The notes under the pieces are model-generated. The model saw only the letters and a list, made by a program, of their open reading frames with translations, was not told where the DNA came from and did not search any database. Source: a virus. From it: 64,000 nt of DNA. Position numbers and translations under genes: made by a program. Location: IMG/VR virus record IMGVR_UViG_3300006931_000007. One strand, given 5' to 3'. Of the stretch, positions 29,779 to 61,008 are shown one piece after another; position 1 is the first letter of the stretch, and each line of letters starts with the position of its first letter.

Positions 29779-31391
29779 TATTTAATGGCCTTTTTCTTCG
29801 CTGGCGCCTTCTTAGCAGCAGGCTTTTTGGCCGCTGGTTTCTTCGCGGCTGGGCCTTTCGGCGCATTCGGATCGCCAGCCGGAGGCGTGGAACCGGGGAA
29901 CTGATTGACAGGTTCGCCAGTGAGCGGGTCCACTTTCGGCAGGATCGGCTTGCCGGTTGGATCAAGTTCGATACCCGCGGCACCAAGGGCTTCGGTCGCT
30001 TCGTCCTGAAGTTCTTGGGCATCCTCCTCGGCGTCGAAGTCCTCGGACAATAGGCCGCGCAGGCGGAGTTCTTCGAGGTAGGCAACGCGGCTGATGTCGC
30101 GGCGGTCGCGTGCCTTGTTCAAAGTATCCAGGCCCGCGGAATCAACCTCAGCCACGTCATAATCTTTCACCAACTCGACCGTGCCGCCCTCTGGGAGCTT
30201 CATCCAATCCGCAGTCATCTGTAGAGCTGACGCAATCGAGTCCTCGAAGATAACAACCATTGCTGCGAGGTCGCTGGAGGCTTCCGCCGAGTCGATAGCG
30301 CGACCCGTCGCCGTCTGATCGCCCGGGCGCTCCTTCAGAAACTGAGAGCCATAGCCCGCCATCTGTACTTCAAGGGCTTCGAGGTCCTTGCGACCGGCTT
30401 CAATCGCGGCGCCGGTGTGTTCCACGTAGTAAAACTTGCCATTTGGGTCGGGGTTGTACAGGATTTGGTTCGGCCCAACAACTACTGCAGTGCCGTCCTC
30501 ACCCGAAGCGCCCGAGCAAGCGAGCATCGGGAAGCGCGCGACCGTCAGGATGTGACGCTGGTCCGAGGTCGATTGCCAATGAGCAACGTTCAACCACGCG
30601 AGGTCCGTCAGCGGGGGCTTACCCTCCATGAAGGCTTCGCGGTTGGCGTAGAACGTCACCAGCGGAATGTAATCAATGCCGGTTGCCCAGCTATCGGCCA
30701 TGAACCACTCAGGCTCGCCGTCGCGTTTCTTCGTCGGGTGCGGTTCCCATAGCTCGACCAGGCCGGGTTCAAGGACGCGGATGCGTACCTTGCTCACTTC
30801 AGCAAAGCCGTCACGCACCGTGTAGGTTTCGAGGATGCGGACGTGCATCAGTACCTCGACGCCCTCGACAACTTGGGCCTCGGCGAACAGGACGCATTCA
30901 GGTTTGATCAGGGACCAATAGGGGCGCACACCTTCCTTCCGATCATCAGCCAAAGTACGCGGCTGACCCTCGACCTTGGGTTGAAGGCGGGGCATATCGA
31001 CCAGGACGTGAGCGAACGCCTTGGCGATACCCTCACGGAACCAACGCCGCGCAAACACGTCCAGGGAGTTACCCTGTAAATCGACATCCTCCAGGATCGG
31101 TTCAACGATGGCTGGAGGAACGTCATCATTGACCTTAATTTCCTCAATGAATGGCTTCCCAACCAAGTTTTCCAGCGTTTGCTCTGTCATATTGAGCAGA
31201 ACCGCCCCGGCGATCCGGGCCGCATAGTTCTGATCCGTCTCCTGACTGTACTTCGGGGCATAGGTCTCGCCCGCGGCGCGCATGGCCTCCGTTCCGCCCA
31301 ACAAGGTCTCAAGTAGCACCCAGCGCGGCATCATGCAGTCATGCGCGGCGGAGGTAGTGGCCGGGCTCTTTGGATCTTTCTTGTTTGACAT
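29778..31391 (-). CDS. portal protein with Lys/Ala/Pro-rich C-terminal tail
   Basis: 537 aa, lying between the terminase region and the Mu F-like gene. The C-terminus reads PAAKKPAAKKPAAKKAPAKKKAIK. Confidence 0.75.
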   Translation of the reverse strand: MSNKKDPKSPATTSAAHDCMMPRWVLLETLLGGTEAMRAAGETYAPKYSQETDQNYAARIAGAVLLNMTEQTLENLVGKPFIEEIKVNDDVPPAIVEPILEDVDLQGNSLDVFARRWFREGIAKAFAHVLVDMPRLQPKVEGQPRTLADDRKEGVRPYWSLIKPECVLFAEAQVVEGVEVLMHVRILETYTVRDGFAEVSKVRIRVLEPGLVELWEPHPTKKRDGEPEWFMADSWATGIDYIPLVTFYANREAFMEGKPPLTDLAWLNVAHWQSTSDQRHILTVARFPMLACSGASGEDGTAVVVGPNQILYNPDPNGKFYYVEHTGAAIEAGRKDLEALEVQMAGYGSQFLKERPGDQTATGRAIDSAEASSDLAAMVVIFEDSIASALQMTADWMKLPEGGTVELVKDYDVAEVDSAGLDTLNKARDRRDISRVAYLEELRLRGLLSEDFDAEEDAQELQDEATEALGAAGIELDPTGKPILPKVDPLTGEPVNQFPGSTPPAGDPNAPKGPAAKKPAAKKPAAKKAPAKKKAIK

Positions 31392-31407
31392 GTTATGTCC
31401 CCGAGTA

Positions 31408-33231
31408 TTAAGCAGCGGCTACAGGATACCGATAAAACCGCACCGGCGGCAAACCTTCCGCATTGCGAAGGAAGTTTGTAAATGCGGAGCCATCCGAGTT
31501 CTCCTGCATTGCAGCATAGCTTACCGTCGCGCTTCCGGCGGTAATCGGCGCCGACAGGGTAATATCAACCCGCGTCGTGTCCGCATTTATGACAACAGAG
31601 CTAATCGTTTGGGCAACCCCCGCAACTTCAACCAACCACAAGTTATCAGCGCCTTTGTTTGCAAGGACTTGGTTGAAGAAACAACTCACGACAGTTGTAC
31701 TTCCCGAAACGTTCCGGGCACTGGTTAAGTGAGGATGGCCGACATGAGGCACGTTGTTTCCACTACCGTCGATGACCCGAAGGTTAGGCAACCCCATGAT
31801 CCGATTCGCAATCACCAGAGCGGCACGGCGTCCATTCTCCTTCTGACCAGCAGTAGCTAGGTGGTAACCATCGGTCGAACCGTTCATAGCCACATCCCAC
31901 GTCGGGTATACAAACACCTTTGACGTTTTCGCGGTCGAGGCTTCTTGAATCACCATTTGCGTGAAATCACAAGTTGTGGTTGTACCTCCCGCGTTGCGTT
32001 GTATAGCAAATGAAGTTCCTGCGGTTGCGACAAAGGTAAATTCATATAAGTGATCGCCGGTCAAGCCGCTCGATTGCGTTGCTTGGGCTACTCCGTCAAG
32101 CGTCCATCCAGAAGCTGGGTTGACCAAGTTCAAAGCGATCTTAAACGCCCCAACCGTACAATTCGCCCTGAAACTTATCTTGTATGCGCGACCAATTACA
32201 TAATCGTGCGTAAGAGCAAGCCCATTACCGTCTCCGCCTAACGTCGTCATGCGAACGCCGCCAGCAATGCTCGTGAAATTTGAGGTTGCTGTATTTCCGC
32301 TGATATACCACTCCGGTGCCGCTGCTGTGAGTCCGTTGTTAATTGTTTTCCACGACGAAGTACCGAACGCCGAAGCAATAACAGAACTGTCTCCGTAATC
32401 TTGGTCAAGCTGGCGCTGGCTATCTGCTCCAATCGCTAAAGCGAGAGTAACAGCGGGATCAGTATGGGGAGCCAACTGTGGAATGATGACAGGCACGTTA
32501 CCAAACCAATAACGATAGGCTGAAATCAAAGATACATAATTTGTAGCCCGAGTCTGAGCCGTCCCGCCGGTTTCCCCTTCATGACCGTGGTGAAGGATAA
32601 TCAAGCGAGAGAAATCGCCCTGACATGCCAAGTTCACGCGGTCGCGCATCTGCCCAAACAAAGAAGTGAGCACCGGCGGGTCATCATAAGCGTTCTGCAG
32701 CCATCCCGGAATGAAAGTGGAACCGACCGCACACGGAAGGATCAAAACATCAGCCCCGGTGAGACGCTTGAGCCAATTTGCTAAATCTAACGCCAATGAG
32801 TAGCGCGCGTTGGCTGGGTTTCCCGCGTTCGGCGTCCAGTTGTCTACCGCGCCCGCGTACCGATTGTGGGATGGTTCGGTGAGGTTGCGGTAGACATTAT
32901 CTTTCGCGAGCATCATACAACCGGGAATCGAAAGCGGCAAATTGGCCGGCATAATACCATTGCCTTCTCCGTTCGATTGACCAGCAATAACAATAACCCA
33001 ACGATTGGTCGAACCCAGCTGGCCGAGAAGGCCATGACTACGGTTGTGATTGGATAGGCCGATGGCGGCTTGGTCCGAGCTAATTGGAGTCAGGATATTG
33101 TTGGTGACATCGTATTTGTAATTAACACCATCGACAACATAAGTATCAACTGTATTGAAAATCTGGGTGCCTGAGTTCTTCAAAGCCAAAAGGCGCAATA
33201 CTTCTGTTTTGGAATAGCCGATGGTGCTCAT
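31408..33231 (-). CDS. SASA/DUF303-type carbohydrate O-acetylesterase with inserted and C-terminal beta-domains
   Basis: It has the GQSNGEGNG nucleophile motif, then HHGHEGETGG, and a distal DGYHL (Asp/His) about 370 aa after the Ser. This implies an insertion of roughly 140 aa within the esterase fold. Confidence 0.65.
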   Translation of the reverse strand: MSTIGYSKTEVLRLLALKNSGTQIFNTVDTYVVDGVNYKYDVTNNILTPISSDQAAIGLSNHNRSHGLLGQLGSTNRWVIVIAGQSNGEGNGIMPANLPLSIPGCMMLAKDNVYRNLTEPSHNRYAGAVDNWTPNAGNPANARYSLALDLANWLKRLTGADVLILPCAVGSTFIPGWLQNAYDDPPVLTSLFGQMRDRVNLACQGDFSRLIILHHGHEGETGGTAQTRATNYVSLISAYRYWFGNVPVIIPQLAPHTDPAVTLALAIGADSQRQLDQDYGDSSVIASAFGTSSWKTINNGLTAAAPEWYISGNTATSNFTSIAGGVRMTTLGGDGNGLALTHDYVIGRAYKISFRANCTVGAFKIALNLVNPASGWTLDGVAQATQSSGLTGDHLYEFTFVATAGTSFAIQRNAGGTTTTCDFTQMVIQEASTAKTSKVFVYPTWDVAMNGSTDGYHLATAGQKENGRRAALVIANRIMGLPNLRVIDGSGNNVPHVGHPHLTSARNVSGSTTVVSCFFNQVLANKGADNLWLVEVAGVAQTISSVVINADTTRVDITLSAPITAGSATVSYAAMQENSDGSAFTNFLRNAEGLPPVRFYRYPVAAA

Positions 33232-33683: not shown

Positions 33684-35219
33684 TTACATCTTACCAGTCG
33701 CGACACCGCGCAGTTTCTTCCGTACACGATAGCGCCAGGCATCGCCGATGTGGTCCTCAGTCTCTGTATCCACATCGTCGAGGTCCTTGTCATCGCGCTG
33801 GAGAGTCGGGATCAGCTCTTGCGACTGCAAACAAGTATCGAACACGAACAGACCAGGCATCTCACGCGGGAGACCGTTGGGCATAGGCAACGCGCCCTTC
33901 AGCGCTTTCCTGATCATTTCCCAACCCTGCTTCCGCGAGCCCGGACCCTTATCAGCAGCCTGCCAGCGCACACCCTTCTTGCGCATGTCCGCTTCGATGC
34001 TGTTACCATTCTCAGTGTCGAAGATCGAAGCATCAGCCGGACCTGGCTTGACCCGATTATGGATGCCCCAATCCTCCTCGCGATCCTTGATGCCTTGGGC
34101 GACTTCGACAGCGAGCATTTTCACGCCTTCGTTCCGAGTACCTGACCAGCCATACCATTCAGCAATCTGGTAGGTGTCGCCCTTGAGCTTGCCATACATG
34201 CGGCCTTGATACTCGAACGGCTCACCATTAGATTCGGCCCACCAGCAGACGCTGAAGGGCGCCGAGCTACCCCAGTCAAAGCTGCGGTCAATCTTCCAAC
34301 CGCGAGGGATCATGGTCAATGGCAGCGACGGAACAACGTGTATTTCGCCATTCCAGATATCATCGAACATGCCCCCGGCGAGAATGTCCCAGGAGCCGTC
34401 AAGCCAGGCTTTCAGTTCGCTCGGGTTCCGCGCCGCGGCCCTGATCTTTTGGATGTAATCGGGGTCAGCGTGAAGAAGTATTTTGTTTTCATAGATCGAA
34501 CCATGGATGGCGACCCGAGGCGGCTGAAGCTCGCCGTCCTTGTAGTCGTCAACAATAACCTTGCCGCGACTCTGCGGAAGGCGAAACCGACGCTTGACCC
34601 AGTTATGCCCTGGACCATAGGGATTGGTGGAGGCGCGATAACAACGCGGCATTCCAGGCTTCGTCGAGCGCGAGCACGACATCATAACGGTGTAACACTT
34701 ATCATCAGGCCAGTTGCAAAGCTCCTCCCAACCAATCCAGGGATAGGCGTGGCCGTGGTAGTTCCAATAGTCATCCTGGGTTTTCATGTGGCGCAGCAGG
34801 AGCTGTTCGCCGTCGGGGAAGGTCCAGGTGTGTTCGACCTTGTTGAACTTCGCGCCGGGGAAGATCAGGCGAAACCATTTCTGCGTCTTGGCGATAACGT
34901 CAGTCAGCTGCGGATAGGTTTGACGGAACAGGATGCCGCGCCATTCGGCTCCGAACCCCTTACCAACGTGTTGGAGGAAGTCCATGAGCAAGCAATCGGT
35001 CTTGCCCGGGCCTCGCGTCCCTTCATACAGGACCTCGAACACTGGACAAGCCAAGAACGCCTCTTGCGACCCGGGCTGAGGAGCCCAAGCACAATGGTGG
35101 TAGGTCGCGCCGTCCCAATACTGGGCGCACAACTCGCCGTCATCGTTGACATACCATTCAATGCCCGGCTCCTTCGGACGTTCGATGGTCTCGGCAATAG
35201 CGTCCGCAAGCTCACTCAT
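33684..35219 (-). CDS. terminase large subunit
   Basis: 511 aa. Walker A-like GTRGPGKTD. Its start overlaps the small-subunit gene stop. Confidence 0.85.
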   Translation of the reverse strand: MSELADAIAETIERPKEPGIEWYVNDDGELCAQYWDGATYHHCAWAPQPGSQEAFLACPVFEVLYEGTRGPGKTDCLLMDFLQHVGKGFGAEWRGILFRQTYPQLTDVIAKTQKWFRLIFPGAKFNKVEHTWTFPDGEQLLLRHMKTQDDYWNYHGHAYPWIGWEELCNWPDDKCYTVMMSCSRSTKPGMPRCYRASTNPYGPGHNWVKRRFRLPQSRGKVIVDDYKDGELQPPRVAIHGSIYENKILLHADPDYIQKIRAAARNPSELKAWLDGSWDILAGGMFDDIWNGEIHVVPSLPLTMIPRGWKIDRSFDWGSSAPFSVCWWAESNGEPFEYQGRMYGKLKGDTYQIAEWYGWSGTRNEGVKMLAVEVAQGIKDREEDWGIHNRVKPGPADASIFDTENGNSIEADMRKKGVRWQAADKGPGSRKQGWEMIRKALKGALPMPNGLPREMPGLFVFDTCLQSQELIPTLQRDDKDLDDVDTETEDHIGDAWRYRVRKKLRGVATGKM

Positions 35220-35761
35220 CGCGAGACCTCCCCCTTGGGCTTATGCCCCGGTGGCGGAGGAGCGGCGGGCCGTCCGGTGTTACCCTTCGCAAGCTCGCCA
35301 TAGCCTGATTCCCAATCGGCAACGGTCATACCCTTCGCGGGTACAACCATGACCCCGCCGACGCGACCTTGGTCAGCACTCGACTTGTCAACGCCTTTGA
35401 ATTCATCGCGACGGGATTTCAACAAGAATTGCGTCAGCGAATCGCTGTACACCTGAATGTGAGTAACAATCTCATCCTTGAACTTACCACCAATCACCGG
35501 CGTCTCGACGCCCTGGAAAGCCCGGCGGTACGCCTCCTTGGCTAACTCATCCGTGTTTGCGTCCTTCGCCTCGATACAACGGGCCGCAAACTCAGGGTCA
35601 CGCTTCTTGTGATCTTGGACTGTGCGAGGGGAGACGCCCGCGGCTTCGGCGGACAAGGTGTCATAACCGCATTCACGCAACGCGGCCAGGAATAACTCTT
35701 TGCGCTCGGGGGTGAACTCAACCGGCGGCTTTGGGGTCATCATTTCACTGCGATTCGGCAT
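35216..35761 (-). CDS. terminase small subunit
   Basis: Start moved to ATG 35761 (GAGGAAG lies 5 nt upstream). HTH-like LSAEAAGVSPRTVQDHKKRDPEF. It lies upstream of the large terminase gene. Confidence 0.7.
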   Translation of the reverse strand: MPNRSEMMTPKPPVEFTPERKELFLAALRECGYDTLSAEAAGVSPRTVQDHKKRDPEFAARCIEAKDANTDELAKEAYRRAFQGVETPVIGGKFKDEIVTHIQVYSDSLTQFLLKSRRDEFKGVDKSSADQGRVGGVMVVPAKGMTVADWESGYGELAKGNTGRPAAPPPPGHKPKGEVSR

Positions 35762-35817
35762 CACGCTTCCTCGGGGCTCGAATATGTGACGCAGCATCAC
35801 GCTTTGTCTTGGCTCGC

Positions 35818-35846
35818 ATTATAGCCCAACCACTTCGATCCGGCAA
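35818..35846 (-). promoter_or_regulatory. sigma70-like promoter TTGCCG-N17-TATAAT for the morphogenesis operon
   Basis: A perfect -10 TATAAT (plus strand attata, 35818-35823) with TTGCCG exactly 17 nt upstream. It sits about 50 nt before the small-terminase start. Confidence 0.45.
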
Positions 35847-35926
35847 CCTCGGGCTCGCGCGCGTAGATCACGACAGACGCACCAGGATAGGGAGCCCAAC
35901 ACAGGGCTTCGGTGCATCTAGTCGCG

Positions 35927-36297
35927 TCTACTTGACTTCGTCCAGCATTACTTCAATATTGGTATACTTCAGGAAAATAAAGTATAGAAGTCAAGTAGCA
36001 CCTAAGTCATTGATAAGTCTTTATTATATTATTATTATTATTATTATTACTTAACTTACTTAACTTACTTGACTAGAATCCCCGGGTGCCGTCTTGGGCC
36101 TCTCGTGACCCGTCGAAACCCCCGCAACCGATTTGACGGGAGATTTTAAAATGAACCCAAGTAAGTCAAGTAAGTCAAGTAGACAAGTTTTAAGTCGATG
36201 ATCCCTAACAGGAAAACCATGTACTTGACTTAAAATGAAGTCAAGAGAAGTATACCAAAATTGGAGTAAAACGTGAGTAAGTCAAGTAGTTGTTGAG
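35927..36297. repeat. AT-rich iteron island B, homologous to island A at 4827..5172
   Basis: At least 8 AAGTCAAGTAG/CTACTTGACTT boxes, (ATT)7, (TTACTTAAC)x2-3, and a 35-bp core at 36160-36194 identical to 5043-5077. Confidence 0.9.
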
Positions 36298-36333
36298 TAG
36301 AGAAAAGACGAAAGCCCTTAGAATCAAGGGCTT
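36298..36333 (-). terminator. intrinsic terminator after the early-gene block
   Basis: Minus strand reads AAGCCCTT-GATTCT-AAGGGCTT followed by TCGTCTTTTCTCT. It lies 55 nt after the MazG-like stop. Confidence 0.55.
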
Positions 36334-36387
36334 ATAAAACGTGAAGTAAAGTTAGTAAGTGACAGCTAACTATACTTAGTGGGGGAT

Positions 36388-36861
36388 TTACAGACCGGCC
36401 GCAATAATAATAGGTGCGAGGTCCGGCGGGGAATAGTTCGGACCCTTCATGATTTTTCCGTCCTCGCGACGGATCGGAAGGCCATCAGCGCCTAGCTTCG
36501 ACATGTTCGAGCGGTGAACTTCAGCCGCAAGGGCCTCCGCCGGAAGCCCAAAGACCAGGTTGCTACCCTGAACGACGTAATCGAGGTCAGCAAGGGCATC
36601 CGCCGCTTCCACTAAATCGACTTTTTCATCTGGAGTAACGGCGACCGCTTTGAAGTAGATTTCGTCAGATTTCTGCACATCGACGTGTAAATGAAGGCTG
36701 ACTCCGAGGGCTAAACACAGCTCACCCAGCTCCTCCGCGATCAATTTCACCCGCAATTCGCGAATTCCGCGTTCAGAAACGGTCGGTTTCGACGGCGCCG
36801 GGTGTCCGAATGCCTCGTGAAAGGCCCGAACGGAGTGAATAGTGTGACCATTATTGCTCAT
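36388..36861 (-). CDS. MazG-like / PRA-PH-like all-alpha NTP pyrophosphohydrolase
   Basis: Start moved to ATG 36861 (AGGAG upstream). LIAEELGELCLALG and EAADALADLDYVVQG are acidic metal-binding helices, and the C-terminus EVHRSNMSK is typical of this family, from memory. Confidence 0.7.
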   Translation of the reverse strand: MSNNGHTIHSVRAFHEAFGHPAPSKPTVSERGIRELRVKLIAEELGELCLALGVSLHLHVDVQKSDEIYFKAVAVTPDEKVDLVEAADALADLDYVVQGSNLVFGLPAEALAAEVHRSNMSKLGADGLPIRREDGKIMKGPNYSPPDLAPIIIAAGL

Positions 36862-36910
36862 GGTGGTGCTCCTTTTCATTTTAAAGTGGCAGGGCTGATG
36901 GTCTGTTTCA

Positions 36911-37279
36911 TCAGCCCTGGGGGTTATCGAGCTTGCGCTTGACTTCGTCAAAGGCTTCGTGATCGACTTCGAGGCCGTTTTCATTAGCCACTACGGTTGC
37001 GAGGTCGCGGAGGACTTCGACCGGGTGGGGTGATTCGATAAAGCGGAAAGCGAGGCCAGACGATCCGAAAAGCGCGCCGCAGAAGCAGCGTTTGCCAAAC
37101 ATACGGAGTCCGACATTGAACGTTTTTACCGACGCAATACAGTAGGGGCAATAGATCATCTTCCAGGTTCGACCGTTCTGGATATGCTCGGCGCTCGCGC
37201 TATAGAAGCGAGTCTCAAACGTCTTGCCTTCGTTCTCCAGCTTTATATCAGACGGTTGAAACAGTCGATTATGCATCAT
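36911..37279 (-). CDS. hypothetical protein (Cys-containing)
   Basis: 122-aa ORF in the early block. Confidence 0.6.
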   Translation of the reverse strand: MMHNRLFQPSDIKLENEGKTFETRFYSASAEHIQNGRTWKMIYCPYCIASVKTFNVGLRMFGKRCFCGALFGSSGLAFRFIESPHPVEVLRDLATVVANENGLEVDHEAFDEVKRKLDNPQG

Positions 37280-37406
37280 CAGCTCCGCGACAGGGGGCCT
37301 TCATCGCTTTGCGAGTGGCCTCATTTTTGAGAGTGAGGAGCCCGCATTTGACGCAGTAGCTCCAGTTGAATATCTTCCCGAGGAAGCTATGTTGGTGCTT
37401 GCTCAT
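37269..37406 (-). CDS. small Zn-ribbon-like protein (45 aa, below ORF-track cutoff)
   Basis: Manual translation MSKHQHSFLGKIFNWSYCVKCGLLTLKNEATRKAMKAPCRGADDA. AGGTGA lies 6 nt upstream. It bridges a gap and overlaps both neighbours. Confidence 0.35.
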   Translation of the reverse strand: MSKHQHSFLGKIFNWSYCVKCGLLTLKNEATRKAMKAPCRGADDA

Positions 37407-37593
37407 CGGCTTTCACCTGTTCTTGAAGCTCGGCCAATACCTTTGCGCGGGCTTCCTTCGTCATAGACGTGATCAGCATCGTCGCAGCCATATCGAGCGG
37501 AGCGTTGGTGAACTCCAGGCGATTTCCGCCAGGCGCCGTATATTTGAGCGAATGAACAATGTTTACCACTTTGGCTTTGGCCATTACTTCCAC
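37387..37593 (-). CDS. hypothetical protein
   Basis: 68-aa ORF, coupled to its neighbours. Confidence 0.55.
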   Translation of the reverse strand: MEVMAKAKVVNIVHSLKYTAPGGNRLEFTNAPLDMAATMLITSMTKEARAKVLAELQEQVKADEQAPT

Positions 37594-37979
37594 CCCATTT
37601 TCAGATCAGAAAGGTTGGTGAGCGCCCCAGTGTAGTCCCAGTAGCGGTCCCATTCGTTGTTACAGTTGTAAACTACCCAAACGCCGTCGGTTCTCCCGGG
37701 GCGAATCTCTTTCACCATCCCATTCTCCCAGCGCGCGTCGCCGTAGTGCTCGGGTTGGTAGTGAACCTTATCGCCGACCTGTAATTGGATCGTGTCCACG
37801 AGGTTCGAGCCTTCGCGGCGAATATCTGCATTCAGGGGCTTCTGGATCGGAAGCGACACCAGCGGATCGCCGAGGAGCGGCGTCACGCGAATGTGGTGAT
37901 CATCCTCGAACGTAATACAGGCGCGCTGACCCTTCAGCGATCCCTCCAGGAACGTAATGAGCTCAACGGGCCGGCGCAT
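37584..37979 (-). CDS. hypothetical protein
   Basis: 131-aa ORF in the early block. Confidence 0.6.
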   Translation of the reverse strand: MRRPVELITFLEGSLKGQRACITFEDDHHIRVTPLLGDPLVSLPIQKPLNADIRREGSNLVDTIQLQVGDKVHYQPEHYGDARWENGMVKEIRPGRTDGVWVVYNCNNEWDRYWDYTGALTNLSDLKMGWK

Positions 37980-38742
37980 GGGCTTTCTCCGCGGCGGCTT
38001 CCGCCTTCAGTATCTTCTTATGAACCGCTTCAAAGGTCCGTGCCGGGGCCTTAATCAGCACCTCGTCATAGGGCCGTGTCTCGACCGGCTTGAGCCACTT
38101 CGATAGCTCGCGGAACGTGATTGGGCGAGTTAGCCGGAGCAGATCGGGGTTGGTTATAAAGAGGCGCATCATTTCAGCGAACCATTCGCCGTCGTTTGGG
38201 CAGTAGTTCGTCAGCTTTTCCTCGCCCGAGGCTTTGCGAATGTTCTTGCTGAATTCGGAATTATAGGCGTTGCCGTTCTTTACATTGCCCAACACGACAT
38301 CGACGTGGTGCCCGATCTCATGCGCCAGGACGCCGTAGGGCTCGCGGTCCACGGTGTACCCCGGATAGGACCAGGACGCCCCGCCGGTTCCGATATGCGC
38401 ACAGCGTTCGAGGCAGATTGCTATGTATGTTGGGCGATAATACGCACAGTGACCGGGTATCCGCCATTCATCCGGCGTGCTCACGCGGACCTCGGGCACG
38501 ATCAGGTTATTGGCTTCGCAGAATTTGGTTATGCGGATCACTCCGCGGTCGAACAGATCGCGTTTGCTCACAGGAAAGGCCCCCGGCGCAGCTGGCGCAT
38601 TGACACGTAGACGATAGCGAAATCCAGGACCTGTTCGAGGACCAGGAGACCGATGATGGTGTAAGCAACGTAGCTCATTCTTGTATCCTCGATTGGAATT
38701 CAGATTTTGCGCCCTCGCCGCGTTGGCTGACCGCGTAGTCAT
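37963..38742 (-). CDS. ImmA/IrrE-like HExxH zinc metallopeptidase (tentative)
   Basis: LAHEIGHH followed by EWFAEMMRLF resembles the M78-type HExxH plus E-x2-A-x3-F arrangement. The start is uncertain: ATG 38742 overlaps the upstream gene by 68 nt, and GTG near 38571 is an alternative. Confidence 0.5.
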   Translation of the reverse strand: MTTRSANAARAQNLNSNRGYKNELRCLHHHRSPGPRTGPGFRYRLRVNAPAAPGAFPVSKRDLFDRGVIRITKFCEANNLIVPEVRVSTPDEWRIPGHCAYYRPTYIAICLERCAHIGTGGASWSYPGYTVDREPYGVLAHEIGHHVDVVLGNVKNGNAYNSEFSKNIRKASGEEKLTNYCPNDGEWFAEMMRLFITNPDLLRLTRPITFRELSKWLKPVETRPYDEVLIKAPARTFEAVHKKILKAEAAAEKAHAPAR

Positions 38743-38923
38743 TCAACTCCCGCCAGAACTTCAATTTGTCTTCGACGGTCTCCGGGGTTACATTGCAATT
38801 CAAGACTTCCCATTCAGTCCAAACAAGTTCAGAACTGAAGTGACAACCGTTGTAGCAACGGCGTTGCGGATCAGTATTGATCAGCATACGCCTCCGCGAT
38901 TCGATAACGAATAGTTGTGTCAT
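38675..38923 (-). CDS. hypothetical protein
   Basis: Start moved to ATG 38923 (GGAGG upstream, ATGA overlap with the 38920 stop). Confidence 0.6.
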   Translation of the reverse strand: MTQLFVIESRRRMLINTDPQRRCYNGCHFSSELVWTEWEVLNCNVTPETVEDKLKFWRELNDYAVSQRGEGAKSEFQSRIQE

Positions 38924-39339
38924 AGAATCCTCCGAATGCCCAACACAGACCGATCCCACCAGGTTGTGAACTGATCGCGCCAGGCGTCCAGGGAGTTCTC
39001 GAACTCGCGCAGGATGCGGGGCCAATCGCTCGGGTGGATGCGGCGTATCACATAGAACTCATAGTGCTCCGCTTGCCATCCCAGCGTTGTTTCGAGGTAC
39101 TTGCCCGCGACCGGATCGAAGTTGAGGTAATGTAGCGTTGGTTGGGCTATGTCGTCAATGTAGATACACTCGAAGATTTCGAGCCCGGGGAGGTCCGCCG
39201 CGTGGTCGATAGCGTATTGCACGCAGTTCTCGTGGCAGCGGTAGTTGAACAGGCCCTGGGTCGATACCGGCTTGATCAGCGGGTAGCGTGACCGAACGTA
39301 TTTGATCAGCTTATTCTGAACAGCAATCTTGCGGGTCAT
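38920..39339 (-). CDS. hypothetical protein
   Basis: 139-aa ORF with ATGA coupling on both sides. Confidence 0.6.
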   Translation of the reverse strand: MTRKIAVQNKLIKYVRSRYPLIKPVSTQGLFNYRCHENCVQYAIDHAADLPGLEIFECIYIDDIAQPTLHYLNFDPVAGKYLETTLGWQAEHYEFYVIRRIHPSDWPRILREFENSLDAWRDQFTTWWDRSVLGIRRIL

Positions 39340-39623
39340 GGTTTCGGTTGTCCTTCAATTCCGGGAACGCGCCAATAGTTTCCTTCCTCATCAGTATGGC
39401 CATAAACCTCTTTGTTCATGATAGCCGGGTGGACATCGTATCGGTGCGACTTGACGGCGTTCGCGCGGTGACTCTCCCAAACCGACTTCTTCGCCGTTCG
39501 GACGTGGTATGGTTCCCGGCCATACTCGCGCTTCAGCCTGAGTATCGTCGTGCGATAGCGGGCGCCGTAGCCAGCGAGGATTCGAGCGGCCCGGCGGATG
39601 CGTTTGGCGGCTTTTCCGTTCAT
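39336..39623 (-). CDS. hypothetical basic protein
   Basis: 95-aa ORF. GAGGAGAAGG SD upstream. Confidence 0.6.
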   Translation of the reverse strand: MNGKAAKRIRRAARILAGYGARYRTTILRLKREYGREPYHVRTAKKSVWESHRANAVKSHRYDVHPAIMNKEVYGHTDEEGNYWRVPGIEGQPKP

Positions 39624-39887
39624 TCAGTCCTTCTCCTCAATCACGATAAGATCGCCCGAGGCGTCGCGCCGACAAAGCAGGCAATAACAGCTATTATACA
39701 TACAGCCGCCGTCCGTTCGACCGCGCAGGTGTATTCCGAGGAAGCAAAGGGCCTTGGTCAGTCGAGTAGGCCCAAACCGCTTCCGGTGTTTGTCGAGTTC
39801 ATCCGCGATCTGAAGAAGATCAGTGCCCGTCAGCGCGTTAAGTTTGTTTTGCTTTACGGCCAGGCGAATGAACTCAGTGTTAATCAT
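39624..39887 (-). CDS. hypothetical Cys-rich protein
   Basis: Start moved to ATG 39887 (ATGATTAA overlap with the upstream stop). The C-terminus carries GGCMYNSCYCLLC. Confidence 0.55.
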   Translation of the reverse strand: MINTEFIRLAVKQNKLNALTGTDLLQIADELDKHRKRFGPTRLTKALCFLGIHLRGRTDGGCMYNSCYCLLCRRDASGDLIVIEEKD

Positions 39888-40140
39888 GAGTGCCGCCGTC
39901 CCGCGCATCGTCGGCCAGGCCTGATTTTGACAACTTCAGTTCAACAACTTCTTCCTCGACGTAGGTGACCACGTTCCAGCCGGTGAGTTTGTGCCAATCT
40001 TCCGCCGACTTTTCGGCGTCCGGGACGTTCTGGTGTTCCTCGACCGTCTTGATTTGGCTCTGATACCCAGCGAGGTCGATGCGCACCCCGGAGTCCTTCT
40101 TGAACGGGTGGTTGTATTTTACGATGCGGACTTCACACAT
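39880..40140 (-). CDS. hypothetical protein
   Basis: Start moved to ATG 40140 (AGGAGAA lies 8 nt upstream). Confidence 0.55.
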   Translation of the reverse strand: MCEVRIVKYNHPFKKDSGVRIDLAGYQSQIKTVEEHQNVPDAEKSAEDWHKLTGWNVVTYVEEEVVELKLSKSGLADDARDGGTHD

Positions 40141-40345
40141 ATTGATGTTTCTCCTTTTCTTGTTGAACACTACATTCTTTGCACAGAAAGAATTCGCGAC
40201 CACCTGTGGTAATCCAACGGAACCGCTCGACTATATTGATCACCCTAAGATCGGGGTCAGTCTGATCGGGCTCCTCAACTTGAACTCGCGGCTCCCGACC
40301 GTCAAACGGGAGGTGATAACGACAATTGCGATTCTCACAAATCAT
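40133..40345 (-). CDS. hypothetical Zn-ribbon-like protein
   Basis: 70 aa with CENRNC ... CKEC cysteine pairs. Confidence 0.55.
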   Translation of the reverse strand: MICENRNCRYHLPFDGREPRVQVEEPDQTDPDLRVINIVERFRWITTGGREFFLCKECSVQQEKEKHQYV

Positions 40346-40698
40346 TCTAGCACCACAACTTTATCAGAGCAGTATTCCTCCGCCGCGGTCAGCGCCCGGC
40401 GAAGATCGGAACGGAAATCATTCAGAGCGAATCGCTCATGAATATCGAAATCGACTGACGGAGCCGCTTCAAGTATCTTCAGGGTCAGGTCAAGCTCGCG
40501 CGCCGTCGCGCCGCAAGGTATCGGTTCGGGTCCCCTGATGCAATTGTTCCAGCCCCAGAGGTGACCGCCGCATTTACCCGCGGAGACGCATGAAGCGTCA
40601 TAGTGGAGCGCGGAGAGGCGAAGCAATCCTTCAACTACCAATACCGACGGCTCCAGATAAAATTTGGGGACGGCTCGAATTGTGATTGGTGTTTTCAT
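40342..40698 (-). CDS. hypothetical protein
   Basis: 118-aa ORF with ATGA coupling. Confidence 0.6.
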   Translation of the reverse strand: MKTPITIRAVPKFYLEPSVLVVEGLLRLSALHYDASCVSAGKCGGHLWGWNNCIRGPEPIPCGATARELDLTLKILEAAPSVDFDIHERFALNDFRSDLRRALTAAEEYCSDKVVVLE

Positions 40699-40865
40699 AG
40701 CTGAGTATCCGTGCGGCGGCGCCGATGGTTTTCAAGTGGAATTCCGTCATCGTCCAACAAGAGAGTCTTGCTGAGATCAACGGGTTTCCGACGTTCCGTG
40801 GTTACTACAACGCGAGGCGCCGCCGGCTTTTCGTCCGGCATAGCTTGGTCTGTGGCGGCATTCAT
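40695..40865 (-). CDS. small hypothetical protein
   Basis: ORF 40695..40880. I favour ATG 40865, 9 nt after GGAG, because the first ATG lies inside the leader box. Confidence 0.5.
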   Translation of the reverse strand: MNAATDQAMPDEKPAAPRVVVTTERRKPVDLSKTLLLDDDGIPLENHRRRRTDTQL

Positions 40866-40873
40866 GTCCATGT

Positions 40874-40884
40874 GCTCCATTTCT
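40874..40884 (-). promoter_or_regulatory. conserved leader/SD box AGAAATGGAGC (copy 4)
   Basis: Exact 11-mer. Confidence 0.6.
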
Positions 40885-40892
40885 CGTGTTGC

Positions 40893-41024
40893 TTAGATGT
40901 TCGCCAGAAGCTCCGCGCGATCTTGCGCTTGTTGCTTCAGCTTTCCCGACGCTTCCGAGGTGAAGTGACACGCACCAACGGCAACGATAACCAGGGCAAC
41001 CAAACTTTCATTTCCGTGCTCCAT
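40893..41024 (-). CDS. possible 43-aa membrane peptide (alternative: 24-aa ORF from ATG 41011)
   Basis: Manual translation MEHGNESLVALVIVAVGACHFTSEASGKLKQQAQDRAELLANI. It would start at the ATG inside the leader box. A 24-aa ORF, MKVWLPWLSLPLVRVTSPRKRRES, starts 7 nt after GGAG in another frame. Confidence 0.35.
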   Translation of the reverse strand: MEHGNESLVALVIVAVGACHFTSEASGKLKQQAQDRAELLANI

Positions 41025-41028
41025 TTCT
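41018..41028 (-). promoter_or_regulatory. conserved leader/SD box AGAAATGGAGC (copy 5)
   Basis: Exact 11-mer, 14 nt downstream of the -10 of the promoter at 41043..41070. Confidence 0.6.
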
Positions 41029-41042
41029 TAATCTGTATAAGA

Positions 41043-41070
41043 AGTATAGTGGAGCCGTCGGAAAAGTAAA
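41043..41070 (-). promoter_or_regulatory. phage promoter TTTACT-N16-TATACT
   Basis: Minus strand reads ACTTTACTTTTCCGACGGCTCCACTATACTTC, nearly identical to the element at 42233..42260. Confidence 0.55.
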
Positions 41071-41075
41071 GTCAA

Positions 41076-41729
41076 CTAATGAATCTTTTTGCGTCTTGAC
41101 CAAAATAAAGCGACAAGCCCTGAGCCCAACAGATAGATCGCTGAGGGTTCCGGGACGCTCGCGACGGTTCCGGGTGTCGTTGGCAGGGTCTCGCAACAGT
41201 CGGGACAGGTCTGGACAACATAGCCCCCGCCTCCACCGTAATAGCTCGGAGGAAACCAGCCCGCGATGTCGTTATGAGTGACAACGATGTCCTGCCCAAT
41301 CACTCCTTCGTCGAAGGGCGTCATGGTCTCCTCGGGGGTGAATGTCGTTGCTTGGGCTTCAGGCTTTGGATCGAACGGTGGCGGACCCTGATAGACGGTC
41401 CAGCCGCTCGGGTCCTCCTTCTCATAGACGCCCATCTTGTTCGGCGCGCGGCGACCGCTCGCCATATCGTCGTTTAACTTTTTGTACATGCGTTCCGAGG
41501 CGAGGCGCTGGGCGCGCTCCTCCGCGGTCATCGGCTTTACGTCGAGCGAGGGGACGGGCTCGCCGTGACGCGAGACCTCGACCGCTGTCAAGCCGCCGGG
41601 GGCAACGGGTCGCAGCCGGTCCTCTGCTTGGGCTTTGTAGCTATCGACCGCGCACTTGGACAGTAGGAGGATCGCGAGCAGGGCGGCAACCGTTGCCCCA
41701 CCGATGAACAGATTGTTACGCGCTTTCAT
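41076..41729 (-). CDS. PEP-CTERM sorting-signal protein with N-terminal signal anchor
   Basis: The C-terminus VPEPSAIYLLGSGLVALFWSRRKKIH has the three parts of a PEP-CTERM signal: a PEP motif, a hydrophobic helix and a basic tail. The N-terminus is FIGGATVAALLAILLL. Confidence 0.7.
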   Translation of the reverse strand: MKARNNLFIGGATVAALLAILLLSKCAVDSYKAQAEDRLRPVAPGGLTAVEVSRHGEPVPSLDVKPMTAEERAQRLASERMYKKLNDDMASGRRAPNKMGVYEKEDPSGWTVYQGPPPFDPKPEAQATTFTPEETMTPFDEGVIGQDIVVTHNDIAGWFPPSYYGGGGGYVVQTCPDCCETLPTTPGTVASVPEPSAIYLLGSGLVALFWSRRKKIH

Positions 41730-41913
41730 GTTGTATCTCCGGGTAATCGAAACGATGGGGAGCTTGGCCCTGACGTTCTTGAAAATTGAAACAGTTTTGT
41801 ACGATCTTCGCCAACTCCCGTTGGGTCAGGTCGCCATCGTAAAATGCCTTGAACTCGCCGCTGAGATAATCCCCGAGCGGAGGAGTTATGGCCACTATGC
41901 GTACAGCGTTCAT
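41716..41913 (-). CDS. hypothetical protein
   Basis: 65-aa ORF, coupled to the downstream gene. Confidence 0.5.
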   Translation of the reverse strand: MNAVRIVAITPPLGDYLSGEFKAFYDGDLTQRELAKIVQNCFNFQERQGQAPHRFDYPEIQHESA

Positions 41914-41925
41914 CCTTGAGGGTCC

Positions 41926-42201
41926 TCAGTATCGGTAAAGGTGAATGACGATAGGTTTCTGGATTTCGCCACGGTCAACACGCCACAGCATCTCACCGAC
42001 ATCACCGGGGAGAATCTTGTAACAGGCGTGTTGCGCTTCGTCCGTTTTCGCATCGAGCTTACAGCGCGCTACGTCGATGACATCACCCTTGCCGGGCTCG
42101 ACCGGGTGGGTGTAGTAGCGCGTCGGAATAACGCGAGGCATGAAGGCGTCCTCCGCGTGCGCGATCCCGGTGAGCAACATTAGCAAAACAAAAGCCTTCA
42201 T
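41926..42201 (-). CDS. small secreted protein
   Basis: Signal peptide MKAFVLLMLLTGIAHA. First gene after the promoter at 42233..42260. Confidence 0.6.
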   Translation of the reverse strand: MKAFVLLMLLTGIAHAEDAFMPRVIPTRYYTHPVEPGKGDVIDVARCKLDAKTDEAQHACYKILPGDVGEMLWRVDRGEIQKPIVIHLYRY

Positions 42202-42232
42202 GATCTAATCCATTTCCTCAGTCTGTTCGAGA

Positions 42233-42260
42233 AGTATAGTGAGACCGCTCGAAAAGTAAA
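42233..42260 (-). promoter_or_regulatory. phage promoter TTTACT-N16-TATACT
   Basis: Minus strand reads ACTTTACTTTTCGAGCGGTCTCACTATACTTC. It is followed by the variant leader AGGAAATGGAT. Confidence 0.55.
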
Positions 42261-42264
42261 GTTG

Positions 42265-42813
42265 TTATCCAATAATTCTTAAATGGTTCAGCGCGCTCAC
42301 CAACTGGATACATTGACGCCGGCAATCCTCCGCCGCATCATGCTTGGGGTCCCCGCCTTCGGGTTCCGCCCAAACACCGATAGTCCGAGCGAGGTCAATC
42401 ACCGTCCGGGTATCGCGCGGCTGATTGTAACGCCAGGGGCGCTTGATTCCCAGGCGGTCATAGTAGCCTTCGAGCACGGTCAGATCAAAGGTTGGACCCT
42501 TCGCCCAAACACGTTCAATCGTCGGGTACTGCCCGAGCCAGTTGCTCAGCGCGTGAAGCACCACGCCGATCTGCTTGGGCTCAATTTGGTCGAGCCCTTC
42601 TTGTTCGCGCCACCAGGCCGTCGTCAGGCGATCCGTTTCACCGCCGGCCATAATCGAGGACATCAGGTCAACGTCCTCGCGGAAGATATCAGGGGGCATC
42701 ATTCCGGTCTGCCAGTCGAATACCAGCGCACCGATCTGAATCACTGCGGCGTCGCGGTTTACACCCATTGTTTCGATGTCAATCATGACGTCTGTTAGGT
42801 TCACATCGCTCAT
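42265..42813 (-). CDS. DnaQ-like (DEDDh) 3'-5' exonuclease
   Basis: Start moved to ATG 42813 (ATGA overlap). Exo I MIDIETMG and C-terminal HDAAEDC motifs. Confidence 0.75.
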   Translation of the reverse strand: MSDVNLTDVMIDIETMGVNRDAAVIQIGALVFDWQTGMMPPDIFREDVDLMSSIMAGGETDRLTTAWWREQEGLDQIEPKQIGVVLHALSNWLGQYPTIERVWAKGPTFDLTVLEGYYDRLGIKRPWRYNQPRDTRTVIDLARTIGVWAEPEGGDPKHDAAEDCRRQCIQLVSALNHLRIIG

Positions 42814-45161: not shown

Positions 45162-45172
45162 GCTCCATTTCT
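45162..45172 (-). promoter_or_regulatory. conserved leader/SD box AGAAATGGAGC (copy 7)
   Basis: Exact 11-mer. GGAG lies 7 nt before ATG 45155. Confidence 0.6.
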
Positions 45173-45187
45173 AGTGTAGGTCTGAAA

Positions 45188-45216
45188 AGTATAGTTACCA
45201 ACGCTTAAAAAGTAAA
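45188..45216 (-). promoter_or_regulatory. phage promoter TTTACT-N17-TATACT
   Basis: Minus strand reads GGTTTACTTTTTAAGCGTTGGTAACTATACTTTT. It overlaps the stop of the upstream gene. Confidence 0.55.
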
Positions 45217-48809: not shown

Positions 48810-49011
48810 GATTATTCCAAGCATAACCTCGGAGGCGGTTGACCTCGAATTCAAAGCGGTTGCCATAGGACGCCGCGAGCCCGCGCGCAACGTCCGCCGA
48901 TTTGGCGCCCCGCGGGAGGTCGCGTTGGAATATAGCTTTGTAGGCTTCTCGCAATTCATGATGGGTGAGTTCCTGTCCAAGTGAGTATCGTTGTTCCATA
49001 ATCAGGCTCAT
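48760..49011 (-). CDS. hypothetical protein
   Basis: 83-aa ORF starting about 9-16 nt after the -10 of the promoter at 49027..49056. No SD is visible. Its 3' end overlaps the next gene, so the true stop or extent is uncertain. Confidence 0.5.
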   Translation of the reverse strand: MSLIMEQRYSLGQELTHHELREAYKAIFQRDLPRGAKSADVARGLAASYGNRFEFEVNRLRGYAWNNHEVVSPDSGCNRMDGI

Positions 49012-49026
49012 GTTCGCCGCCGGGAA

Positions 49027-49056
49027 AGTATAGTTGTGTGAGTTCGTAAAAGTAAA
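49027..49056 (-). promoter_or_regulatory. phage promoter TTTACT-N18-TATACT
   Basis: Minus strand reads ACTTTACTTTTACGAACTCACACAACTATACTTTC. Confidence 0.5.
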
Positions 49057-49063: not shown

Positions 49064-49276
49064 TCATTGATTCATCGCCGTTCGGATTTCGCGCCGTACT
49101 TGCAGGCGGGCGTTCAAGATCGCGCGGTGGTCGCTCGCCGAGCGCGAACAGGTCACCATGCAAGCCTTACCACAGACCGTGAAGCGGACCTTATAGTGCC
49201 GCTTCCCGTTCTCGACCCGGTACGCAATACCGGCTTCAGCCAGCTCCCGCTTTGTCGCTTCCAGTGTCTCGCTCAA
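49064..49276 (-). CDS. hypothetical protein
   Basis: 70-aa ORF overlapping the primase gene stop. Confidence 0.55.
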   Translation of the reverse strand: MSETLEATKRELAEAGIAYRVENGKRHYKVRFTVCGKACMVTCSRSASDHRAILNARLQVRREIRTAMNQ

Positions 49277-51690: not shown

Positions 51691-51691
51691 T

Positions 51692-51985
51692 TTACAGCCC
51701 CCAGAACATGCCCAAGCGATCAATCGGCGCGTCACCCGCTTCCATTTGAACTACCCACAAGCGAGTACAGCCAAGTTTCTCGGCGACTTCCTTCTGGGTA
51801 AGTCCTTTACGGCGGCGGAGCAATACACATACCTCATGAGGCTTCGGTGGTCCTGAGAGCGCAACGTTTGGTTTTTGTTCGGCAAGGCCGCGCGCTTTAT
51901 ACTTTGCGCGCATTGCGTTCAGCTTCCGGCGACGGCCTTCCAGCCACTTCAACTCGGAATCTGAAACACTTATTTCGATAGACAT
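51692..51985 (-). CDS. XRE-type helix-turn-helix protein
   Basis: LTQKEVAEKLGCTRLWVVQMEAG is a classic HTH. Confidence 0.65.
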   Translation of the reverse strand: MSIEISVSDSELKWLEGRRRKLNAMRAKYKARGLAEQKPNVALSGPPKPHEVCVLLRRRKGLTQKEVAEKLGCTRLWVVQMEAGDAPIDRLGMFWGL

Positions 51986-55447: not shown

Positions 55448-55643
55448 GTTCTAACTCCTTCAGGGCTTCTCGCAATCGGCGAGTTTGTTGTTGGTAAAGA
55501 TATCCGACCAGCATGGCGTCAGGACCCATCAAGGACTTATGGACCTTAACCAGCTGTTCAGCAAGCTCCTCCACCGTATCATATGCGGCATATTTCAGGG
55601 AGGGCTCGGACTTCCAATCAGCCGCGAGCTTTTCCAGGTCCAT
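55428..55643 (-). CDS. small hypothetical protein
   Basis: Start moved to ATG 55643 (GAGGAAG lies 9 nt upstream). The remainder of the 104-aa track ORF is Arg/Ser-rich and non-coding-like. Confidence 0.5.
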   Translation of the reverse strand: MDLEKLAADWKSEPSLKYAAYDTVEELAEQLVKVHKSLMGPDAMLVGYLYQQQTRRLREALKELEHVKRQR

Positions 55644-56181
55644 CGGCCATTGCTTCCTCGAAGAAGTCCGACAGGCGCCCGCGGTTCGAGTTGAAGTTGT
55701 CCACGAAGAAGCGGACCTCACCCGGCAGCGTACCTTCGTCATGGCGTTTCATTAGTACGTCGAAACAAACCTGGAACATTTGCTGGACGCGCTTGTTGCC
55801 AAGGCGGTGTTCTTCCCAGCACCACAGCCAGAGGTCGAGCGTGTCAACGGCCTTGAGCCACTGAGTTTCCTCCTCTGTCAAGACCTGAGCCAATTCAAGC
55901 GTTTCGAGGATCGCTTGTTCAGCCTCCTCATAAACGCGGCCCAGGTCGGGGTTGGAATACTTCGCCGGGGCCGGCATATCACCCAACCAGCGTTCGCCGA
56001 CATCGTGCCACTGTACGGCCTTGATCAGCGCGAGCGACGGCCCGGGGTGAAGCAGGAGGAGCAGCGACAGCGCACCATAACTGTGTTGGGCGATGTTATA
56101 CTGACCGTGATGGGGGATTATATGACACCGGCGCACCGCGCCGGCCTCCCGAGTCGCGAGGACCTGCAAGAATTTATTCAT
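55618..56181 (-). CDS. HD-domain phosphohydrolase (YfbR-like 5'-deoxynucleotidase type)
   Basis: Start moved to ATG 56181, an 8-nt overlap with the ThyA-like stop. H...HD...D pattern: IIPHHGQYNIAQHS ... VQWHDVGERWLGD. Confidence 0.7.
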   Translation of the reverse strand: MNKFLQVLATREAGAVRRCHIIPHHGQYNIAQHSYGALSLLLLLHPGPSLALIKAVQWHDVGERWLGDMPAPAKYSNPDLGRVYEEAEQAILETLELAQVLTEEETQWLKAVDTLDLWLWCWEEHRLGNKRVQQMFQVCFDVLMKRHDEGTLPGEVRFFVDNFNSNRGRLSDFFEEAMADGPGKARG

Positions 56182-57819: not shown

Positions 57820-57821
57820 TT

Positions 57822-59479: not shown

Positions 59480-59503
59480 GTCGTGCTCCTTTTCGGGTGT
59501 TGC

Positions 59504-60952: not shown

Positions 60953-60978
60953 GGGGGTATCTCCTATGAATGAGAAAA

Positions 60979-61008
60979 AGTCTACTCCAGGACGGGGCGA
61001 GAAGTAAA
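60979..61008 (-). promoter_or_regulatory. candidate internal promoter TTTACT-N18-TAGACT
   Basis: A family member with a weaker -10, lying in the 72-nt gap between the PLP and radical SAM genes. Confidence 0.4.

Follow-up and report, generated by a model that had tools for sequence, protein, structure and literature searches.

What function could be served by a long, AT-rich palindrome that a phage keeps in two copies between its blocks of genes? The question is raised by island B, an intergenic element that lies between a MazG-like gene and the small terminase gene (terS), and by its second copy, island A, in the 64,000-nucleotide stretch of viral DNA that was analysed (hereafter the window; IMG/VR record IMGVR_UViG_3300006931_000007). 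The initial annotation, made from the letters alone, had offered three readings of island B: an operator array for a phage DNA-binding protein controlling the early-to-late switch, a replication origin, or a packaging site. Transcription control is the sole one of these with experimental support in a homologue, phage YuA; the packaging reading is weak, and the origin reading is without direct support. Islands A and B are interpreted here as conserved transcription-control and boundary elements with face-to-face promoters, hairpin terminators, and box arrays for a phage DNA-binding factor, an interpretation whose chances of being correct are close to even. It corresponds to the operator array for an early-late switch, made more specific.

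Its sequence places the window among the YuA/M6-like siphophages, family Mesyanzhinovviridae. Its closest DNA matches are the Bordetella phages CN1, FP1, and MW2 and the Pseudomonas YuA-like phages, and a gene-order comparison finds it syntenic with YuA throughout. TerL (75%), the major capsid protein (85%), the primase-helicase (77-78%), and the DNA polymerase are all 75-85% identical to their YuA counterparts, and TerS is 44.5% identical. Nearly all genes, including the MazG-like pyrophosphohydrolase gene and terS, are on the minus strand. In transcriptional order, the early and replication genes are followed by island B, the morphogenesis and lysis genes, island A, and then the helicase and further replication genes; the islands sit at both junctions of the replication/early block with the morphogenesis block. 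The setting is made up of the following features, with the strand given where one applies:

3022-4776, minus strand: SNF2-family helicase gene, downstream neighbour of island A
4829-5170: island A, the second copy, in direct orientation, in the spacer of the 5174-5488 gene and the SNF2-family helicase
5174-5488, minus strand: last gene of the morphogenesis/lysis block, upstream neighbour of island A
33684-35219: TerL gene, adjoining terS
35216-35800, minus strand: terS, downstream neighbour of island B
35928-36289: island B, AT-rich quasi-palindrome, intergenic from the MazG-like gene to terS
36388-36984, minus strand: MazG-like pyrophosphohydrolase gene, upstream neighbour of island B
49273-51735: prim-pol/SF3 helicase gene

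The ~6 kb that lie transcriptionally upstream of island B (36388-42265) form a lineage-variable block with no detectable YuA homologue, the exception being MazG, which is common to the window and CN1. On the other side of the island, TerS is only 45-52% identical to that of any relative, compared with 73-77% for the adjacent TerL, and the same disparity is seen between YuA and L050 (46% for TerS, 86% for TerL). TerS, which recognizes the DNA, therefore evolves or is swapped at a much higher rate than TerL. The idea that the islands mark joints at which a YuA-like replication block has recombined with a foreign structural block was rejected, as identities to YuA are alike on both sides and TerS is the sole outlier.

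Island B is AT-rich as annotated, with 38% GC against ~56% for the genome overall and ~0.52-0.63 elsewhere in the window; the low-GC intervals are 36001-36400 (0.38) and, for island A, 4801-5200 (0.39). The boxes in both orientations that the annotation had noticed are equally real: AAGTCAAGTAG has 11 matches in the window with at most one mismatch, every one of them in islands A or B, where 0.48 would be expected, and a count of 11 was reached in 0 of 100 shuffles. Six of these matches fall in island B, starting at 35928 (minus), 35988 (plus), 36163 (plus), 36172 (plus), 36221 (minus), and 36279 (plus). These agree with copies listed in the initial annotation, of which a further two, at 36066-36074 and 36238-36246, turned out to be weaker partial copies. 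The (ATT)7 run at 36029-36049 and the TTACTTAAC repeats at 36044-36070 are both present, and scans recovered the terminator (36333-36312, minus) and the near-consensus promoter (35846-35818, minus) said to flank the island.

Several properties had escaped notice. The ends of island B are inverted repeats of 43 nt (35928-35970 and 36247-36289; 81% complementary), and the island folds whole as one long imperfect palindrome with z = -7.6 on either strand. The tetranucleotide AAGT/ACTT occurs in 27 copies, against 4.3 ± 1.9 expected from composition, and the islands are composed almost wholly of it. GATC, counted 734 times in the window over both strands, has only 0 and 1 sites in the two islands (4820-5180 and 35920-36300). 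The map of island B and its flanks is as follows:

35818-35846, minus strand: proximal terS promoter TTGCCG-17-TATAAT, outside island B, homologue of YuA promoter P014
35928-35970: left outer arm, terminal inverted repeat, comprising the box 35928-35938 and TGGTATACTTC, with TTGACT-17-AATATT on the plus strand
35963-35986: hairpin TATACTT / AAGTATA
35988-35998, plus strand: box copy AAGTCAAGTAG, whose palindrome partner is the copy at 36221-36231
36003-36015, minus strand: perfect match to the IHF consensus, TATCAATGACTTA, with its island A counterpart at 4893-4905
36029-36049: (ATT)7 microsatellite, abutting the core and upstream of the antisense -35 in a position like that of an UP element
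36050-36070, minus strand: ultraconserved 21-nt core, AAGTAAGTTAAGTAAGTTAAG on the gene strand, conserved across relatives
36074-36079, plus strand: TAGAAT, predicted antisense -10; TTAACT-17-TAGAAT scores 9/12
36080-36139: GC-rich palindrome centre, variable apart from CTTGGGCC (36093-36100) and CGATTTGACGGGAGA (36129-36143)
36143-36169, minus strand: predicted gene-strand sigma70-type promoter, with -35 TTGACT at 36169-36164, a 15-nt spacer, and -10 TAAAAT at 36148-36143
36160-36194: box array of 9-bp period, AGTAAGTCAAGTAAGTCAAGTAG and ACAAGTTTTAAG, identical to 5043-5077 and inverted partner of the core
36224-36245: two-box hairpin CTTGACTT / AAGTCAAG, positional analogue of the YuA upstream-arm hairpin
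36247-36289: right outer arm, terminal inverted repeat (repeat I1), comprising the box 36279-36289 and GAAGTATACCA
36312-36333, minus strand: intrinsic-terminator-like hairpin ending the MazG transcription unit, found by terminator scan and identical in the close relative L101

Read on the plus strand, the core gives the -35 (TTAACT, 36051-36056) and the 17-nt spacer of the putative antisense promoter, whose start is predicted at ~36086-36089 (plus) by alignment with YuA. The sense start is predicted at ~36136 (minus), so that the two predicted starts face each other ~50 bp apart with the GC-rich centre between them. Only six IHF-consensus matches occur in the whole window, and two of the six are the island sites. 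By eye, no match to GG-N10-GC, the sigma54 pattern, was seen in the island centre; YuA late genes use sigma54. A small plus-strand ORF, MNPSKSSKSSRQVLSR, preceded by a GGGAGA ribosome-binding site, is present in both window islands and was rejected as a candidate gene because its frame is lost in YuA, CN1, and L050. An attP or telomere-resolution site was likewise discarded, as neither an integrase nor a protelomerase is among the annotated genes.

Island A shares this organization. The two islands align over their full length with 81% column identity. The left-block alignment reported in the initial annotation extends to 35963-36082 against 4853-4972, gap-free at 84%, and the identical 35-mer (36160-36194 = 5043-5077) lies within a longer match of 36137-36201 to 5020-5084 (83%). 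Island A folds with z = -5.1, carries the core at 4940-4960 and an antisense promoter-like site, TTAACT-17-TAGAAA, at 4941-4969, and occupies the position of the YuA gp01-gp02 spacer.

The proposed search of related phages bore out the islands as a family feature: all Mesyanzhinovviridae examined retain both, with unchanged position and architecture. These relatives have one island upstream of terS and a second upstream of the SNF2 helicase, every one of them forming a giant imperfect palindrome with fold z between -3.3 and -7.6. In Bordetella phage CN1, an AT-rich island matches island B in place and layout, and this layout recurs in 15 of 15 viral contigs that were found through TerS only and have enough sequence upstream of terS. 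The core was searched by exact-pattern scans. It is present without change in 43 IMG/VR stretches, with two copies in complete or near-complete genomes, and, among 16 loci retrieved by their TerS only, 14 have it 318-360 nt upstream of the TerS match, in phages whose TerS is merely 45-49% identical to that of the window. Outside such phages, 596 Gb of bacterial genomes yielded 25 matches, mostly simple satellites in AT-rich genomes, and 4 of the 25 belong to phage contigs within metagenome bins. Long tandem satellites, with up to 7 or more matches, are likewise formed by the 9-mer AAGTAAGTT in the AT-rich genomes of Ignavibacteria, Legionellaceae, and others; those in the bacterial metagenome bins L070, L086, L089, and L090 have no relation to a phage context.

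The core is always followed by a microsatellite, the unit of which varies between phages: (TAA)n in the window, (TATC)6 or (AAG)6 in YuA/M6, (TATC)6 in CN1, and (TAA)5 or (TA)n in other relatives. The islands of YuA, the gp01-gp02 and gp49-gp50 spacers, are true homologues of those of the window. They share the flanking genes (upstream of terS and of the SNF2 helicase), the core with its microsatellite, the TTCNCCCGNCAAATCG and GCCCAAG blocks, and the palindromic layout, and their blocks are collinear (core, microsatellite slot, CCCGNCAAATCG, GCCCAAG). YuA differs in its dispersed boxes, GCGCTT(G/A)GG rather than the CTACTTGAC of the window, in having a different microsatellite in each island, and in a longer centre. 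The blocks GCCCA(A/G)G and CCCGNCAAATCG are kept far more widely than the boxes. Distant members likewise have an island at both positions, with a box peculiar to each phage: AGCTACTTCAA in Sonora, ACTTGAGTT in Ab18, and TCAGGTC(C) in PhiJL001, where it occurs in both orientations and as three tandem 9-bp copies beside an AT-rich tract. The box type is common to both islands of a genome and different between lineages. A close metagenomic relative, L101, varies in part of the GC-rich centre, in one core base, and in one box, at the site of window 35988-35998, which is swapped to the YuA type CCAAGCGC. The islands of the window, YuA, and PhiJL001 are direct repeats; in Ab18 (L121), island A is inverted relative to island B (84-388 against 31294-31598, 86% over 310 bp). 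Further viral contigs, L022/L028/L056 (IMGVR_UViG_3300043400_000014), L039, and L049, have the same core flanked by inverted box families of their own (GTCTTAACTTAGC, AGTTAAGTC, GGTTGTGCCGGCTAAGTG) but no GC-rich centre; the core-plus-box design may extend beyond YuA-like phages.

In the YuA homologue, fragments of the islands have promoter activity, an antisense start lies at the core, and transcription terminates at the island edge. The promoter-trap sigma70 promoters are annotated at 489-568 and 33014-33160, with the comment "medium activity, clear -35/-10" (GenBank NC_010116 annotation). One trap fragment falls within the homologue of island A and the other within that of island B, both in the direction of the genes, and the sense promoter predicted in the window is the positional homologue of the one at 33014-33160, its hexamers being read from the sequence. 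ONT-cappable-seq of YuA mapped 21 starts (Putzeys et al., 2023/2024; PMC10914365; Table S3, bioRxiv supplement). P002 is an antisense start (TSS 612, minus strand) that its authors class as a "phage promoter" (PMC10914365), and the 50 nt upstream of it (-50 to -1), checked against the YuA sequence, are the exact reverse complement of the microsatellite, the core, and TTAAAC. The TAGAAT of the window (36074-36079) aligns with this TTAAAC, directly upstream of the mapped start. Antisense RNAs of 201 nt (612 to 411) and 552 nt (612 to 60) arise from P002, and termination sites at 395 (plus), 471 (plus), and 411 (minus) flank the arm hairpin at the upstream edge of island A (PMC10914365). The downstream operons of YuA have proximal promoters of their own, P003 (TSS 814) and P014 (TSS 33417, TTGGCT-17-TATACT) (PMC10914365), both of which have window counterparts. 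For the sense promoters, ONT-cappable-seq called no start, and none was called inside the island B homologue (PMC10914365).

The first half of the core resembles CTTTACTTCTTCGG, the upstream element of a YuA phage-specific promoter class (CTTTACTTCTTCGG-N10-TATACT), but the match to that element is only partial and the -10 of the window is TAGAAT, not TATACT. Promoter-like sites of the form ACTTTACTTTT-N12/13-(C)ACTATACTT(C/T) occur on the minus strand upstream of early genes at 41019-41070, 42209-42260, 45164-45215, and 49003-49054. Those sites (41041, 42231, 45186, and 49025, minus) match the YuA repeats described as a "phage-specific promoter requiring a phage cofactor", which account for nine mapped starts (PMC10914365).

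Homology of the islands, their palindromic form, their conservation, and promoter-like hexamers at positions homologous to those of YuA are all observed in the window. On the transcription-control reading, the promoters of the window would fire, a protein would bind the boxes, and the arrangement would act as a switch. Each island would be a ~360-bp imperfect palindrome in which two promoters converge across the GC-rich centre. The first, of host sigma70 type, would read with the genes from a -35 (36169-36164) inside the 9-bp-period box array and a -10 at 36148-36143. The second, antisense, would consist of the core, which supplies the -35 TTAACT and the spacer, together with TAGAAT; it would belong to the phage-specific class and have the microsatellite upstream in the position of an UP element. 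AAGT/ACTT hairpins at the island edges would stop transcription arriving from either side and so insulate the neighbouring units, the downstream operon (terS or helicase) being driven by its separate proximal promoter. The lineage-specific boxes may bind a phage-encoded factor, which would tip the balance between the convergent promoters so that the early host-type promoter is shut off as infection proceeds. Boxes that are the same within a genome and different between lineages are as expected for the sites of a co-evolving trans factor, and the inversion of the Ab18 island would be tolerated by a bidirectional promoter and terminator unit. Convergent promoters tens of base pairs apart, with flanking operator repeats and mutual interference, are known from pR/pL of coliphage 186 and Pe/Pc of P2. 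The islands resemble these switches in their proposed face-to-face promoters with operator repeats. They differ in that the 186 and P2 switches are single-copy lysis-lysogeny switches with a known repressor, whereas the phage of the window is virulent and has two copies, with one promoter assigned to a phage-specific class.

The transcription-control reading is held at even chances for four reasons: the homologous sense promoters of YuA were unseen during infection, the sense spacer of the window is short (15 nt, where sigma70 uses 16-18), the invariance of all 21 nt of the core, spacer included, exceeds what a promoter needs, and no box binder was found. One candidate put forward in the initial annotation, the HTH protein encoded at 51692-51985 (97 aa), has a recognition helix that is conserved even in PhiJL001, whose boxes differ entirely, and is therefore unlikely to read the variable box. 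Comparison of the boxes with this HTH protein, the primase C-terminus, and TerS gave no convincing co-variation. A second candidate region, 63096-64000, contains the ORF 63646-63942 (minus). This ORF and its neighbour, 63096-63602 (minus), both match phrog_7790, the latter also matching DUF3489, and both align to the same segment of YuA gp08, which indicates that a small putative DNA-binding domain has been duplicated in tandem.

It is possible, though rather unlikely, that the islands are instead twin replication origins. Arrays of initiator boxes would then converge on an AT-rich microsatellite that melts readily, and transcription begun at the promoters within the island would open the origin or prime it, as happens at origins that combine a promoter with an unwinding element. 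The helicase loaded there would be the prim-pol/SF3 helicase (49273-51735) or the SNF2 helicase beside island A. The anatomy suits an origin in the window, YuA, and PhiJL001 (box TCAGGTC), with tandem 9-bp units abutting an AT-rich low-complexity tract and inverted arrays opposite. At least three repeated sites lie beside the AT-rich tract, as in iteron origins, in the form of 9-bp arrays that flank the microsatellite, although these units are shorter than classic iterons (repeat units of 9-11 bp against 17-22 bp). Dyad symmetry over the whole island, the IHF-consensus site in both window islands, the presence of two homologous copies per genome, and the independence of orientation in Ab18 also fit. 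So does the conservation of the core in step with the replication proteins, the primase-helicase being 77-78% identical to that of YuA and 44% to that of PhiJL001, whose array differs. In contrast, the literature searched gave no sign of origin activity in relatives, and the experiments on homologues all concern transcription. PHROG and Pfam scans of the early genes examined found no Rep- or O-type initiator gene, and the microsatellite may be (TATC)6 or (AAG)6, which is not especially easy to melt. The islands contain no cluster of DnaA boxes, and with 0-1 DnaA boxes per island a host DnaA-dependent origin was rejected.

Origins of comparable layout are known. In oriL/oriR of SPP1 and ori/crr of P4, the initiator (G38P and alpha) and its binding have been demonstrated. 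Like these, the islands are two homologous repeat regions kilobases apart with boxes beside an AT-rich tract; unlike these, their units are shorter and in both orientations. In oriS/oriL of HSV, palindromes in which inverted initiator boxes flank an AT-rich spacer exist in several copies and lie in promoter regions between transcription units. The palindrome, the several homologous copies, and the promoter regions are shared by analogy only, the virus and its proteins being unrelated and the symmetry centre of the islands being GC-rich, with the AT tract off-centre.

A 9-bp tandem array beside an AT-rich tract, with inverted arrays flanking, is at least as origin-like as it is promoter-like, and both functions could coexist. 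The paired islands might then be a previously unrecognised class of boundary element, promoter switch and replication origin in one, a proposal about as unlikely as origins by themselves. Were it true, face-to-face promoters would fire into a box-flanked microsatellite to open or prime an origin at either end of the morphogenesis block, and throughout the Mesyanzhinovviridae the early-to-late transcription switch would be coupled to the initiation of replication.

Action at the level of RNA is improbable. Here, read-through of the island would yield a hairpin cut by RNase III, or the antisense transcript would serve as a regulatory non-coding RNA of ~200 nt. The rod-like fold (z down to -7.6), the conversion of mismatches in the core/array helix into G-U pairs on the gene strand, and the 201-nt antisense RNA mapped in YuA (PMC10914365) would all accord with such a role. 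The fold is equally strong on either strand, however, which points to symmetry at the DNA level. In addition, RNAalifold, applied to the centre in several lineages together, returns no consensus structure, the conserved blocks are kept as sequence and not as pairs, and neither Rfam nor tRNA searches of the window returned a match.

Slightly more improbable still is that island B is the pac region at which TerS assembles and headful packaging starts, with island A as a second recognition site. Island B lies directly upstream of terS, and the family is described in the literature as packaging permuted genomes by a headful mechanism, its members having been reported without a mapped pac. TerS is also by far the most divergent conserved protein, paralleling the lineage-specific boxes, but its identity does not follow box type: L050 shares YuA and window boxes, and its TerS is ~46% identical to all. 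Island A is equally conserved ~31 kb from terS, and the published PhageTerm terminus prediction for the relative Sonora is far from terS. Part of the island sequence is, moreover, already explained by the promoter and TSS data.

The Correia/NEMIS elements of Neisseria have terminal inverted repeats with promoter-like hexamers, an IHF site, and hairpin-forming transcripts, and are present in hundreds of copies with target duplications. The islands share with them the terminal inverted repeats, the promoter-like hexamers, and the internal IHF site, and differ in being two syntenic, vertically inherited copies. That the islands are selfish, MITE-like miniature inverted-repeat copies without function for the phage, as their 43-nt terminal repeats, hairpin-prone whole, promoter-like ends, and IHF site might suggest, is highly improbable, given exactly two syntenic copies even in lineages as distant as PhiJL001 and Ab18, no visible target-site duplication at either island, and the near absence of the core from 596 Gb of bacterial genomes outside phages of the YuA-like kind.

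To return to the transcription-control reading, individual YuA promoters have already been published, reportedly by Ceyssens et al. in 2008. In the YuA papers the promoters are dealt with singly, and nothing was found there that describes the paired palindromic architecture. A literature search found no paper with the core sequence, and a 2025 paper comparing the whole family uses none of the words "intergenic", "promoter", and "origin of replication". As a family feature, the paired quasi-palindromes, the core with its variable microsatellite, the box types co-varying between islands, and the Ab18 flip therefore seem to be undescribed. YuA/M6-like phages are common on Pseudomonas, Bordetella, Stenotrophomonas, and Xanthomonas and are considered for therapy, and throughout the family one elaborate non-coding element is maintained in duplicate, always in the same two places. 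Its 21-nt core is better conserved than most proteins, and in YuA part of it is an experimentally mapped promoter. The islands offer a concrete target in the search for the phage factor by which host RNA polymerase is redirected, in mapping the origin, and in the engineering of YuA/M6-like phages. They are also natural module junctions, and the element could be used as a sequence marker of the family in metagenomes.

Two further regions of the window deserve mention. On the minus strand, the genes of 55600-61900 resemble the thymidine-hypermodification cluster of YuA/M6, with a dU hydroxymethylase-like thymidylate synthase, a radical-SAM/photolyase-like protein, and a threonine-dehydratase-like protein, and the DNA of the phage is probably hypermodified. 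A kinase encoded within this cluster (58742-59479) is labelled "terminase small subunit" in PHROGs. In the tail region, the adjacent minus-strand genes 6139-7266 and 7270-8427 (375 and 385 aa) share DNA repeats D3, D4, and D10 at an offset of 1.13-1.15 kb and are probably tandem paralogues.
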